Below are positions 30,380-32,631 of a stretch of DNA of 64,000 bases, piece by piece (within the stretch, counting starts at the first letter, position 1; every line of letters begins with the position of its first letter). The position numbers and the translations under genes are program-made. Origin of the DNA: a bacterium. Lineage in GTDB: Bacteria > Patescibacteriota > Doudnabacteria > UBA920. The DNA lies in the NCBI GenBank assembly GCA_016699995.1, contig CP064996.1, positions 837,747 through 901,746 of the forward strand, read 5' to 3'. The notes below the pieces were generated by a model that saw only the letters and a list, made by a program, of their open reading frames with translations, searched no databases and had not been told where the DNA came from.

Positions 30380-30776
30380 GTCCCGCCGTCCCGCCGAAAA
30401 GTTTTGGGGGCGAAGCCCAAGCAGGCGGGCAAAAAGGAAGGGGGTTGGGGGGAAGGAATTTTTGCCCGCCTGCTTCCGATCCCGTTCCGTTTGAGAAAAG
30501 AAAAAGCGGAAGGGGGGTTTGGGGGGAATTCCGCTTTTCCTTTTCGAAATCAAATTGTGGACAGCCCCGCCACCTGCCTGAATACTTGGAAGGCAGAACA
30601 CCGCAGAAAAATACTCTTTTCATTAGAAGAAAAAGAAATCGGGCGCGCGCAAAATGAAAAGAGCAAAGAGTATTTTTCTGTGGTGTGGCGAGGTTTCCGA
30701 GCAGTGGCGGGGCTGGCTTCCTTATTGGGGGTTTTGCTCAAAAAATGTTCGAACTTCGTCCAGAAAACACCGCCAA
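30380..30776. repeat. IR1-R: 397-bp GC-rich structured repeat, inverted copy of 22533..22929
   Basis: Two long hairpins with G-tract loops (GGGGGTTGGGGGG and GGGGGGTTTGGGGGG) plus a 14-bp-arm palindrome GAAAAATACTCTTT..AAAGAGTATTTTTC. Confidence 0.9.
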
Positions 30777-30903
30777 TTTTCACTTTTTGTGAAATCGTAA
30801 GGAATTGCCTCGGCGCAAAGCGCCTCGGCATGGTATTTTTCCGCAATTTTGAAGGCATTTTTGAAATCCAAAAACAAAGTGCGGTCGGCAATGCGGAAGT
30901 TCG
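30770..30903. repeat. IR2-L: 134-bp repeat, inverted copy of 32387..32520; overlaps IR1-R by the heptamer CCGCCAA
   Basis: Exact reverse-complement match to the recombinase 3' end / tRNA-Ser junction copy. Confidence 0.85.
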
Positions 30904-31017
30904 CAGAGCGAAGCTCTGGCAAAATGAAATTTTGCAAACCAATCTTTTTTCTTTTGCTTTCAGCGAAAGGTTGAGCGCATTTTTCTTTGATTGCCCAAAA
31001 GCTAATCTAAAAACAAT

Positions 31018-32631
31018 ATGGACAACATAAATTTACAAACCAAAAAGTTTTTCCTCTATGCGAGAAAATCCACGGACGAACCAGAGCGTCAAATTCTTTC
31101 CATTGAGGCGCAACTTTTTGAATTGCGGGAATATGCCAGAAAAGAGGGTTTGAATATCGTCCGTGAATTTTTGGAAAGCAAAACCGCCAAAGAGCCAGGC
31201 AGAGAAATTTTTAACGAAATGATCTCGCGCATAGAGGAAAATGAAGCCGAGGGAATTTTAGCGTGGCACCCCGACCGCCTTGCTCGCAATTCCATAGACG
31301 GCGGACGGATAATTTACTTGGTAGATACTGGTAAAATATCCGCGCTAAAATTTCCGACTTTTTGGTTTGATCCGACACCGCAGGGAAAATTTATGTTGTC
31401 CATCGCTTTTGGGCAATCAAAATATTATGTGGATAATCTTTCGGAAAATATAAAGAGGGGTATTCGCCAGAAACTTAGAAATGGAATATGGCCCGCTTGG
31501 GCTCCACTTGGCTATATAAACGACAAGAATGCTCGTTGTATTGCGGTTGATAAAGAAAAGGCGAAATATATCAAGCGGGCTTTTGAAATGTATGCAACTG
31601 GCGAATATCCCCTTGCTCAAATCCGAAAGATTATCAATTCCTTGGGCTTGGTTGGCAAGAAAGGCAAGATGCTTTCCGTCTCAAATTATCAGTATATGCT
31701 CAAAAATCCGATTTACTACGGAATTATCGAATACAACGGCGAAATGTATGACGGAAAGCACGAACCGATTATCACAAAGAAACTTTTTGATTCCGTTCAA
31801 GAAGTGATGATGAGAAAGAGTAAACCGAAAACGCCAAAATTGAAACCCTATGTGTATAGAGGATTTTTCCGTTGCGGAGAGTGCGGTTGTTTCATCACGA
31901 CCGAAACACAGAAAGGACATAATTATTTGCGTTGCACCAAACGGAAAAATCCTTGTACTCAAAAATATGTTCGCGAGGAAATCATCACTTCTCAAATAAA
32001 AGAGGAAATCAAAAAAGTTTCTTTATCTTCCGCTTGGGCGAACGCTTCAATAGAATTTTTTGAAAACGAGAAATTAAAAACCGCCCAAGCGGAAAGCTCT
32101 TTCGCCCAAGAATTGCGAGATGAGCTTGTAGAAATTGAAACAAAACTTGATCGCTTGCTTGATTTACAGTTGGCAGGCAGTTTGTCGCAAACGGAGTATG
32201 CCACCAAGAAGCACAAGCTCATTCTCGCAAAAAAGGATTTAGAAGAAAAAATCTCGTCTTTTGGGCGAAAGAGCAATAATCGGTTCGAACTTGCCATTAA
32301 CTTCATAAAAGAAGCCAACCAAGCCGAAAAATGCGCTCAACAAGAAAATCCCGAAAGGATTCGGGATTTTCTAAAAAAGATTGGTTCGAACTTCCGCATT
32401 GCCGACCGCACTTTGTTTTTGGATTTCAAAAATGCCTTCAAAATTGCGGAAAAATACCATGCCGAGGCGCTTTGCGCCGAGGCAATTCCTTACGATTTCA
32501 CAAAAAGTGAAAATTGGCGGAGAGGCAGGGATTCGAACCCTGGGTACCCTTGCGAGCACATCGCATTTCGAGTGCGACCCATTCGACCACTCTGGCACCT
32601 CTCCAAATTTTTTAACGATCCGCCTCCATAA
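31018..32631 (+). CDS. large serine recombinase (resolvase catalytic domain, recombinase domain, zinc ribbon, coiled coil)
   Basis: 537 aa; N-terminal YARKSTDEPERQILSIEAQ; zinc ribbon CGECGC..C..C; last ~45 codons lie inside IR2-R and ORF reads into tRNA-Ser on opposite strand. Confidence 0.9.
   Translation: MDNINLQTKKFFLYARKSTDEPERQILSIEAQLFELREYARKEGLNIVREFLESKTAKEPGREIFNEMISRIEENEAEGILAWHPDRLARNSIDGGRIIYLVDTGKISALKFPTFWFDPTPQGKFMLSIAFGQSKYYVDNLSENIKRGIRQKLRNGIWPAWAPLGYINDKNARCIAVDKEKAKYIKRAFEMYATGEYPLAQIRKIINSLGLVGKKGKMLSVSNYQYMLKNPIYYGIIEYNGEMYDGKHEPIITKKLFDSVQEVMMRKSKPKTPKLKPYVYRGFFRCGECGCFITTETQKGHNYLRCTKRKNPCTQKYVREEIITSQIKEEIKKVSLSSAWANASIEFFENEKLKTAQAESSFAQELRDELVEIETKLDRLLDLQLAGSLSQTEYATKKHKLILAKKDLEEKISSFGRKSNNRFELAINFIKEANQAEKCAQQENPERIRDFLKKIGSNFRIADRTLFLDFKNAFKIAEKYHAEALCAEAIPYDFTKSENWRRGRDSNPGYPCEHIAFRVRPIRPLWHLSKFFNDPPP
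32387..32520. repeat. IR2-R: 134-bp repeat at recombinase 3' end, ending at the 3' terminus of tRNA-Ser
   Basis: Inverted copy of 30770..30903; terminal GGCGG on plus strand is the complement of the tRNA-Ser 3' end. Confidence 0.85.
32515..32604 (-). tRNA. tRNA-Ser (anticodon CGA)
   Basis: 90 nt; long variable arm; anticodon stem TCGCA/TGCGA, loop CUCGAAA; T-loop GGTTCGAATCC; discriminator G; CCA encoded. Confidence 0.85.

Follow-up and report, generated by a model that had tools for sequence, protein, structure and literature searches.

A putative mobile island of Patescibacteria with a large serine recombinase between inverted copies of its own attachment site

The 64,000-nucleotide stretch of DNA analysed here (hereafter the window) comes from contig CP064996.1 (assembly GCA_016699995.1, forward-strand positions 837,747 to 901,746) of a bacterium of the Doudnabacteria lineage of the Patescibacteriota, and it harbours a large serine recombinase gene lying between inverted repeats next to a tRNA-Ser gene. 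From the layout of these repeats and the comparison with relatives, we propose, with a probability of roughly 0.7, that the locus is a mobile island which integrates into tRNA-Ser genes and possesses a mirrored attachment site (attP), the arms of which recombine with each other and flip the segments that they enclose. Positions 22533-32520 of the window probably correspond to the integrated form of this element, which is about 10 kb long and carries the large serine recombinase.

Results

Three junctions and two overlapping inverted repeats

A repeat search of the window detected two inverted repeats (IR1 and IR2). The arms of IR2 (30770-30903 and 32387-32520) are 134 nt long, 100% complementary and separated by 1483 nt, while those of IR1 (22533-22929 and 30380-30776) are 397 nt long, 99% complementary and separated by 7450 nt. 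The two repeats overlap by 7 nt (30770-30776). The plus strand reads TTGGCGG at both 22533-22539 and 32514-32520, and CCGCCAA at 30770-30776. An earlier note on this DNA had claimed a perfect 134-bp inverted repeat around the recombinase, which the repeat search bears out, and the heptamer CCGCCAA/TTGGCGG at all three repeat junctions, where we also read it. In relatives, what the three junctions have in common is CGG minimally and up to 8 nt, the heptamer being peculiar to the window genome. A perfect 134-nt inverted repeat and a 397-nt one in 64 kb cannot be due to chance, and the window contains two copies of the P' arm motif, no more, where zero are expected.

In what follows, tail designates the 127 nt of the gene tail; X, the 390 nt past the core in IR1; X', the inverted copy of X in the right arm of IR1; Y, the left chromosomal flank; and Z, the leader upstream of the recombinase. 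The junctions read Y-core-X (J1), tail-core-X (J2, on the minus strand) and tail-core-tRNA (J3). In serine-integrase terms, J1 is the left hybrid site (attL), J2 is a complete attP, inverted and internal, and J3 is the right hybrid site (attR), while the DUF1801 flank Y is the B-side arm of the former target site (attB). The terminal nucleotides (..CCGCCA) of the intact tRNA-Ser(CGA) gene are derived from the element, as they are in relatives. The features concerned are as follows (ORF, open reading frame):

22072..22527, minus strand: Y flank, DUF1801 gene (Pfam PF08818, E 1.1e-12), with its start codon 6 nt from the core
22533..22539: core at J1 (attL, Y-TTGGCGG-X), from the sequence and the repeat search
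22533..22929: left arm of IR1, made of core and X; TTCGAAC (22556-22562) is the P' half-site, at a distance of 16 nt from the core
30380..30776: right arm of IR1, made of X' and core, the outer half of the internal inverted attP (repeat search)
30722..30769, minus strand: X-encoded native C-terminus of the recombinase (CFLDEVRTFFEQNPQ and stop), in frame with the tail copy (translation)
30770..30903: left arm of IR2, in which the 44 codons that precede the core recur in inverse orientation, and P half of the internal attP (J2), with its core at 30770-30776
30904..31017, plus strand: Z, 114-nt leader from the left arm of IR2 to the recombinase start, positions 30964-31002 of which are complementary to 31405-31443
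31018..32631, plus strand: large serine recombinase ORF in its integrated form, 537 residues, 1-501 native and 502-537 antisense to the tRNA
32387..32520: right arm of IR2, genuine 3' end of the gene and P half of attR, with its core at 32514-32520
32515-32604, minus strand: complete tRNA-Ser(CGA) (ARAGORN; Rfam tRNA, 57 bits)
32532-32538: T-arm TTCGAAC, the B' half-site, 11 nt from the core

The tRNA-Ser target and the attachment half-sites

The loci of relatives are labelled L001 onward, and a scan limited to one genome per species yielded 80 of them. In about 20 loci with all three junctions, Y is unrelated from genome to genome, while X and the tail are element sequence; the sequence common to the junctions is 3-8 nt long, its minimum being CGG, which is complementary to tRNA positions 71-73. 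As many as 64 of the 66 classifiable recombinase ORFs of the representative set end antisense in a tRNA gene, namely tRNA-Ser in 61 cases (21 CGA, 18 GCT, 11 TGA and 11 GGA), tRNA-Gln in two and tRNA-Glu in one. The proposal of the earlier note that recombination occurs at a tRNA-derived core, with integration at the 3' end of tRNA-Ser, is strongly supported by this comparison of about 60 relatives, and the alignment with them places attB at the 3' end of tRNA-Ser in 61 of 64 cases, with a CGG core and unrelated Y flanks. From these junctions, we regard integration at tRNA-Ser as highly probable.

The direct repeat of the tRNA 3' end at the far junction is 3-8 nt long across loci (7 nt here, 22533-22539), and no target duplication was found beyond the core. 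Such a short repeat is as expected of a serine recombinase, in contrast with the tens of nucleotides of tyrosine integrases. On the tRNA side of the junction the T-arm GGATTCGAACC is always present, at a core distance of mostly 11 nt, and the X side bears GTTCGAAC, for which this distance is mostly 16 nt, so that the offset of the TTCGAA-like motif in X relative to the tRNA is +5 bp in 31 of 37 loci. Knowing that in the A118/LI integrase the motif contacted by the zinc-ribbon domain lies 5 bp further out in attP than in attB half-sites, X resembles a mimic of the tRNA T-arm set in the attP register. By analogy, the TTCGAA-like motif may be the zinc-ribbon contact. Since the Y-side half of attB is not conserved, recognition seems to rest mainly on the tRNA half.

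ARAGORN also called, at 51942-52015 of the window, a tRNA of undefined identity with a four-base anticodon (cgtc).

The mirrored layout in relatives

Most of the 80 loci belong to metagenome-assembled genomes (MAGs) of Patescibacteria, with many depositor-assigned classes, and some to Elusimicrobiota; their recombinases are 58-95% identical to the query. In metagenomes, 7944 of the 8000 scored candidates are recombinase homologues at E <=1e-20, many of them on contigs of 1.5-2.1 kb. Three contexts obtained by exact protein match all show an inverted repeat of 127-134 nt (98-100% identity), with arms 1483-1496 nt apart, beside tRNA-Ser(TGA, GCT or CGA); one of them is a 1.06-Mb NCBI contig which carries two copies.

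The tail repeat IR2 was found by scripted self-comparison in 54 of 58 evaluable copies (43 at >=97% identity and 23 at 100%). The four loci in which it is unclear (L014, with a diverged arm; L038, L069 and L080, with none) do not contradict the pattern. The X repeat IR1 occurs in 20 of the 26 loci with sufficient upstream sequence (108-404 nt, 94-100% identity), around cargo of 1.3-7.5 kb. Tail arms of the same element have a median identity of 100%; for arms of different elements the figure is 85% if these are close and 66% overall. Being far more alike within than between elements, the arms evolve in concert. Judging from these sequences, the mirrored layout is a family trait. The family also appears to be mobile, as recombinases 85-93% identical occur in MAGs with many class labels of the candidate phyla radiation (CPR), with differing cargo.

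The recombinase and its two C-termini

The protein comprises the Pfam domains PF00239 (Resolvase, residues 12-157, E 1.6e-19), PF07508 (Recombinase, 1.5e-17) and PF13408 (Zn_ribbon_recom, 1.4e-08), and residues R16, K17 and S18 of the catalytic domain are invariant in 78 homologues. Its best sequence matches among solved structures are chains of the phage A118 integrase (E 2e-6). The AlphaFold2 model of a native-form homologue (mean predicted local distance difference test score 79) shows catalytic, recombinase and zinc-ribbon domains together with a coiled coil (338-441), the helices 338-385 and 391-441 of which are placed between zinc-ribbon strands; a terminal helix (495-513) spans the core, with a confidence of 54-70 only. 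The enzyme thus presents the characters of large serine recombinases that were looked for, i.e. a catalytic serine domain, a recombinase domain, a zinc ribbon with an inserted coiled coil, hybrid junctions with a short core, and the 5-bp shift of the motif. It is distant from every characterised member of this group: matches in cultured phages or plasmids and in IMG/VR are <30% identical to it, apart from a single IMG/VR contig at 58%.

The right repeat, described in the earlier note as the last codons of a recombinase gene ending at the tRNA, does encode the last 44.7 codons before the core, but the ORF does not end there: in the integrated form it reads 36 further codons, antisense across the whole tRNA gene (...ENWR, then RGRDSNPGYPCEH...). 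The left copy of the tail continues in frame into X for 15 codons and then stops (...ENWR, then CFLDEVRTFFEQNPQ and stop). The minus-strand ORF at 30722..30937, which had been taken for a likely pseudo-fragment, is not decaying but identical to the gene tail in most family members and holds the conserved native last 15 codons with their stop. Predicted homologues accordingly form two C-terminal classes, ending in W-R-R-x-R-D-S-N-P (antisense tRNA) or in W-R-C-F-L-D-E-V-R-T-F-F-E-Q-N-P, and the translation of the inverted copy in about 50 loci yields W-R-[CS]-[FL]-[LR]-x-[EDK]-V-R-T-[FY]-F-x-x-[NH]-P, with a stop a few codons further on. This native motif is maintained over 58-100% recombinase identity. 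Its codons vary synonymously (TTT/TTC, AAC/AAT, CCC/CCT/CCG) and its conserved positions reach past any plausible binding site, whereas the 12 residues directly before the core are hypervariable. As read from these translations, the native reading frame of the recombinase ends in X with a conserved peptide. Integration thus swaps out the conserved C-terminal peptide, which the internal copy preserves.

The last 37 nt or so before the core occur as discrete sequence types (YDFTKSENWR, FNFAECKTWR, LDFSKCDSWR). In L023, L024, L025, L027 and L032, the two tail arms differ in type and match over their inner 97 nt or so, and such mixed types indicate recombination between different elements inside the tail.

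Orientation states among relatives

All four combinations of recombinase and cargo orientation are present, in different genomes. In the standard state, that of most loci, the recombinase reads into the tRNA and the gene of a helix-turn-helix (HTH) protein adjoins the recombinase. The cargo is flipped in L042 and L097. The recombinase is flipped in L084, at tRNA-Ser(GCT), and in L096, at tRNA-Gln, both of which read tRNA(+) - degenerate or 86.5% tail copy - recombinase - tail - core - X; what lies beyond X is the HTH end of the cargo in L084 and its far end in L096. As the arms have diverged in these two loci, assembly ambiguity is excluded there. One and the same element (recombinase 100%, cargo 99.3-100% identical) carries its cargo in opposite orientations in L085/L089 and in L086-L088 and L090; the arms of L085-L090 measure 56 nt, which is below the k-mer length, and the contigs come from different samples. 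We treated L084, L096 and this comparison across 56-nt arms as the robust evidence on orientation. The inversion of the recombinase and/or defence segment raised in the earlier note is therefore matched by relatives in alternative orientations (L084, L096, L042, L085 vs L086-L090), in each case between genomes only. Taken together, these assemblies lend moderate support to flipping.

Tandem arrays, with hybrid junctions tail1-core-X2, occur in L027 (425-7782), L098 (1-8255), L097, L006 and L085 (11499-11693). In L027, the hybrid junction joins two elements, the second of which ends at the tRNA. An occupied tRNA gene retains the tRNA half-site and hence stays a target, the newest element being the one beside the tRNA. 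In L098, which is likewise an array and not a circle, a 459-nt tail-core-X repeat flanks the recombinase segment on either side. The tRNA-proximal element of L085 no longer has its recombinase segment, and a mutated tail remnant of about 31 nt remains by the tRNA. We had considered L085 as a clean empty site (X'-tRNA) of a recombinase cassette, and rejected this reading in view of the remnant, which marks a deletion derivative in a tandem array. As to target recognition, the arrays tell only that the left half of the target need not be specific.

Cargo, promoters and structures in X

The segment between the arms of IR1 contains the following genes and promoter-like sites:

22929..25625, minus strand: ATPase, 898 residues, like AAA_21, Ppl, AriA and OLD (Pfam PF13304; PADLOC Ppl, 2.5e-33)
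25628..27463, minus strand: type I methyltransferase fused to one specificity domain, HsdM-S (PF02384, 3.9e-56; PF01420, 7.7e-23; PADLOC MTase_I, 8.5e-97)
27474..29990, minus strand: type I restriction subunit, HsdR-like helicase-nuclease (PF04851, 1.1e-39; HSDR_N; PADLOC REase_I, 4.2e-57)
29995..30204, minus strand: Cro/C1-type HTH protein, 69 residues, like a controller protein (PF01381, 5.8e-17; PADLOC control protein, 8.5e-12)
30198-30226, plus strand: strong promoter-like site TTGACA-17-TATTAT, pointing through X' and the internal attP at the recombinase (consensus match only)
30292-30264, minus strand: promoter-like site TTGACT-17-TATACT, facing the HTH/cargo operon (consensus scan)

A small HTH_3-family gene is found in most cargo segments of relatives (18 of the 86 cargo ORFs scanned, from 21 segments), so far as gene content tells, and it and the large serine recombinase appear to be the only conserved genes of the island. 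The sequence of the HTH-side promoter is conserved in relatives, and the two putative divergent promoters would allow autoregulation at the internal attP.

X also contains a three-stem module, at 22594-22748 and, as its reverse complement, at 30561-30715, with GCGCGCGC in the central loop. It exists as three sequence subtypes in relatives, with compensatory changes (both sides altered in 11 of 37 predicted pairs), and one A-C mismatch in a stem is a G-U pair on the strand read toward the recombinase. These features give a weak hint of an RNA leader; neither the module nor X matched any Rfam family (E up to 1). Hairpins with GC clamps and C-rich loops lie at 22769-22808 and 22836-22889 (GGCGGGCAAAAA...TTTTTGCCCGCC), with mirror copies in 30380-30776; in the other X types of relatives (L005, L016, L028), the GC-clamped hairpin is reversed and its loop G-rich. 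Two small hairpins stand directly inside the X arms of L005, L008, L013, L016, L019-L021, L029, L031 and L042, GCCAGTTGAAAACTGGC at the far cargo end and, at the HTH end, ATTTTGCAAAGCAAAAT; GCGCCRCC comes after both. The window has neither, and in L042, the cargo of which is flipped, the two are exchanged. We rejected a single-strand hairpin attP (CTX-phage style), a hairpin telomere and a rolling hairpin, the topology of which would break the chromosome.

Positions 30964-31002 of the leader Z are 73-77% complementary to codons 130-142 or so of the recombinase (31405-31443), which encode the conserved AFGQSKYYVDNLS motif, and L001 shows a matching complementarity (9947-9983 vs 10390-10426); it may represent a translational control structure or chance. 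A plus-strand ORF of 253 residues (30269-31030) covers X', the internal attP and the inverted tail. Its counterparts in relatives (such as 143 residues in L001 and 191 in L002) were annotated by gene callers and have no Pfam family on record; the ORF is probably spurious, arising because the coding sequence is mirrored.

Discussion

Proposed mechanism

We propose that the island integrates from a circular form, by means of its recombinase, into tRNA-Ser genes at their 3' end. Strand exchange would occur inside CGG (tRNA positions 71-73), and the tRNA end would be rebuilt from element sequence. The attP core would lie within the recombinase gene, about 15 codons ahead of its native stop, and the block 'last 44 codons - core - X' would be present twice in the island, in inverted orientation. 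In the circle, the two blocks would form a single pair of repeats of about 0.5 kb, with an attP in each, and part the recombinase segment (1.5 kb) from that of the cargo (7.5 kb). Were the island to integrate through the copy that lies downstream of the gene, this copy would be split, sending its X half to the left end (attL, left arm of IR1) and its tail half to attR beside the tRNA (right arm of IR2), while the other copy would stay whole within the island, as the right arm of IR1 plus the left arm of IR2. IR1 and IR2 would then be a single pair of repeats, in which integration cut one copy at the core, hence their overlap of exactly the core. Recombination between the arms would keep them identical and flip either segment. 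The conserved C-terminal peptide is missing from the recombinase in the common state, and a flip would bring back the native gene. The four orientation states could be two flip isomers of the circle integrating through either attP, and a later inversion between arms would yield the same four. Integration and inversion had been presented as alternatives in the earlier note; each is supported, and the data fit both at once.

We infer the circle, the catalyst of flipping, the source of arm homogenisation and what the second attP is for. Repeats of 134-400 nt are long enough for the homologous recombination of the host, which would account for concerted evolution as well; the recombinase itself may also be the catalyst of flipping. 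Given that the internal attP and attR both have the tail on their inner side, the products of their inversion would again be an attP and an attR, which makes an inversion by the enzyme attractive in topological terms. We also considered, and rejected, a palindromic CG crossover dinucleotide that loses polarity: the junctions are always Y-core-X and tail-core-tRNA, never antiparallel products.

Several observations weigh against this mechanism. In representative genomes, 64 standard cases stand against 2 hybrid ones, and flipping must therefore be rare or one state strongly favoured. The arms of L042, L091/L092 and L097 exceed the assembly k-mer, and their orientations are possibly path choices of the assembler; no evidence of mixed orientations was found within any one sample. 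In canonical serine integrases, attP is not known to pair with either attR or attL, and an enzyme-driven flipping is not expected under the textbook attP-attB rule. Scans of metagenome DNA across the predicted attB and in the Y gene found no empty attB, neither a circular form nor inversion within a population was observed, and no candidate directionality factor was identified beyond the conserved 69-residue HTH protein. Two loci lie beyond the simple model unless extra events are allowed. In L024 (9669-11587), a recombinase segment sits between two complete, inverted tRNA-Ser(GGA) genes, with tail copies of two types and neither X nor cargo nearby; possible causes are the capture of a second tRNA site by the internal attP and a gene conversion that proceeded outward. 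In L080 (9595-11552), a 62%-identical recombinase reads antisense into tRNA-Glu, with a tRNA-Ser gene 316 nt upstream on the same strand and no tail repeat, and the locus may be the product of a rearrangement between two tRNA genes. As regards the circle, its junction has the same sequence as the internal attP, so short contigs cannot reveal it. We did not accept short 'isoform B' contigs as proof of it, given that collapsed repeats or tandem arrays can produce the same paths. No other contigs of the window genome were found by an exact look-up of the recombinase.

A further interpretation of the mirrored attP, which we hold as tentative and rather doubtful, is that it acts as a self-locking, re-armable integrase switch, the internal copy being a spare 3' exon and a spare attP that let a silent island re-arm and hop. 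Only the circle or the flipped state would encode the native enzyme with its ..VRTFF..NP peptide, while integration through the downstream attP would put antisense-tRNA sequence in place of the peptide, disarming the enzyme. Such disarming on integration would explain the standard state of 64 of the 66 representative genomes. The segment could flip to and fro without a directionality factor, and one circle resembling the yeast 2-micron plasmid would give rise to the four integrated states.

Alternative explanations

The orientation data could also be read as those of a resident phase-variation switch of the Hin/Gin/Cin type, which inverts its own segment and/or the defence cargo at a locus that is not mobile. 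The recombinase does sit in a segment bounded by inverted sites, both segments occur in both orientations among relatives, and the cargo comprises restriction-modification and defence genes, which are often phase-variable. However, the outer junctions resemble attL and attR and always lie at a tRNA 3' end, with chromosomal flanks that are unrelated in each genome, and near-identical recombinases accompany different cargo in very different lineages. Furthermore, the 537-residue enzyme contrasts with small invertases of about 190 residues, which consist of a catalytic domain and a C-terminal HTH, almost all assemblies show a single orientation, and inversion of the cargo would shift no obvious promoter, that of the HTH/cargo operon being inside the segment. 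We consider such a resident switch unlikely. The Hin/Gin arrangement put forward in the earlier note holds only as an analogy. Inverted cores bound the recombinase and cargo segments, and both orientations occur, in different genomes. The arrangement does not hold as membership, in view of the 537 residues, the attP/attB-type sites and the recombinase and zinc-ribbon domains.

The repeats might instead delimit two independent modules, i.e. an IS-like (insertion sequence-like) recombinase cassette with 134-nt terminal inverted repeats, mobile by itself, and a cargo cassette between inverted X arms; the nested repeats would then result from the insertion of one cassette next to the other. X and recombinase types are indeed shuffled (the distant recombinase of L053 goes with the X type of the window), the recombinase cassette stands alone between two tRNA copies in L024, and in L085 it lies on the far side of a cargo whose own cassette is deleted. 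This last case, together with L027, L097 and L098, is nevertheless accounted for by tandem arrays. Similarly, the many contigs of 1.5-2.1 kb that hold the cassette only are what assemblers are expected to yield at repeats longer than k. Conservative serine recombination at inverted ends inverts and does not excise, which leaves no known way to move the cassette; X flanks it upstream in nearly every locus, and no target is duplicated beyond the core. Two separate modules thus seem improbable to us. That the repeats are an artefact of assembly or amplification, such as a fold-back chimera, is scarcely credible: inverted chimeras do arise in amplified DNA and repeats do confuse assemblers, yet 54 of 58 independent loci, which stem from various studies and assemblers, show the same architecture with the 1483-1496 nt spacing, the two-copy 1.06-Mb NCBI contig among them.

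Comparison with known systems

Similarly to the large serine integrases of phages and integrative and conjugative elements (A118/LI, phiC31, Bxb1, SPbeta), the enzyme has the same domain order, with a coiled coil inserted in the zinc ribbon, and its sites share the short core, the attP x attB -> attL + attR type of junction and a distal motif displaced by +5 bp in the P arm. Unlike them, the island targets a tRNA 3' end with one conserved half-site, has its attP inside the integrase gene and a second, full, inverted attP with long identical flanks, and shows no evident directionality factor. An attP inside the integrase gene is found in the myxophage Mx8 (intP/attP), where integration alters the C-terminus of a tyrosine integrase. 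The likeness lies in the crossover within the 3' end of the integrase ORF, which leaves the integrated copy with a different C-terminus; the differences are that Mx8 uses a tyrosine integrase and is not known to keep a spare inverted 3'-end copy.

The yeast 2-micron plasmid (FLP/FRT) shares with the island two long inverted repeats, a site in each and two segments that flip relative to each other, but FLP is a tyrosine recombinase and 2-micron a replicating plasmid, whereas the circle of the island is putative and one of its repeats is split by integration. As with P1 Cin and Mu Gin, a flip exchanges the C-terminal coding end of a gene; those enzymes are small serine invertases, while here the enzyme is an integrase and the swapped end is its own. 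TnpX and TndX (of Tn4451 and Tn5397) are large serine recombinases that move small elements via a circular intermediate, with a 2-bp crossover, at many target sites, with no known tRNA specificity or long inverted repeats including the 3' end of the gene. The island resembles these elements in the movement of a small element by a large serine recombinase, presumably also via a circle, and differs from them in being targeted to tRNA genes and in having long inverted repeats that take in the gene 3' end.

Unlike an insertion sequence or a transposon with terminal inverted repeats, the island inserts in tRNA-Ser in 61 of 64 cases (the rest in tRNA-Gln/Glu), with no duplication past the core. It is akin to tRNA-integrating genomic islands, with insertion at a tRNA 3' end and restoration of the gene by element sequence. 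Among these, tycheposons are small islands that occupy the 3' ends of tRNA genes, tRNA-Ser included; they encode a site-specific recombinase, and their cargo is adaptive or defensive (bioRxiv 10.1101/2020.12.28.424599). Their recombinases are tyrosine recombinases in 910 of 937 cases and large serine recombinases in a minority, and they leave partial direct repeats of the tRNA and often carry replication genes (bioRxiv 10.1101/2020.12.28.424599). An inverted duplicate attachment site, as in the island, is not described in the available text of that preprint (bioRxiv 10.1101/2020.12.28.424599).

Significance

The finding is real, and wider than could be seen from the window alone, while the function of the second attP is left to inference. 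A literature search in an incomplete library returned no description of a serine integrase lying between inverted copies of its own attP, nor of this family of CPR elements. Three traits are unusual: a large serine integrase is aimed at a tRNA via just one conserved half-site, of which the element has a mimic displaced by 5 bp; attP is located in the integrase gene; and a second, inverted attP exists, the arms of which evolve in concert. If the flip is driven by the enzyme and reversible without a directionality factor, it would constitute a natural bidirectional switch made from a normally one-way enzyme, which is relevant to genome engineers. In addition, the conserved acceptor and T arm of tRNA-Ser could provide a broad-host-range landing site.

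The mobile elements of CPR/Patescibacteria are little known, and this recombinase family is abundant, with thousands of homologues at E <1e-20. It moves across lineages, as indicated by recombinases 85-93% identical, mostly carrying restriction-modification and other defence genes. It is plausible that this family is a main route of defence-gene exchange in the reduced genomes of CPR bacteria.

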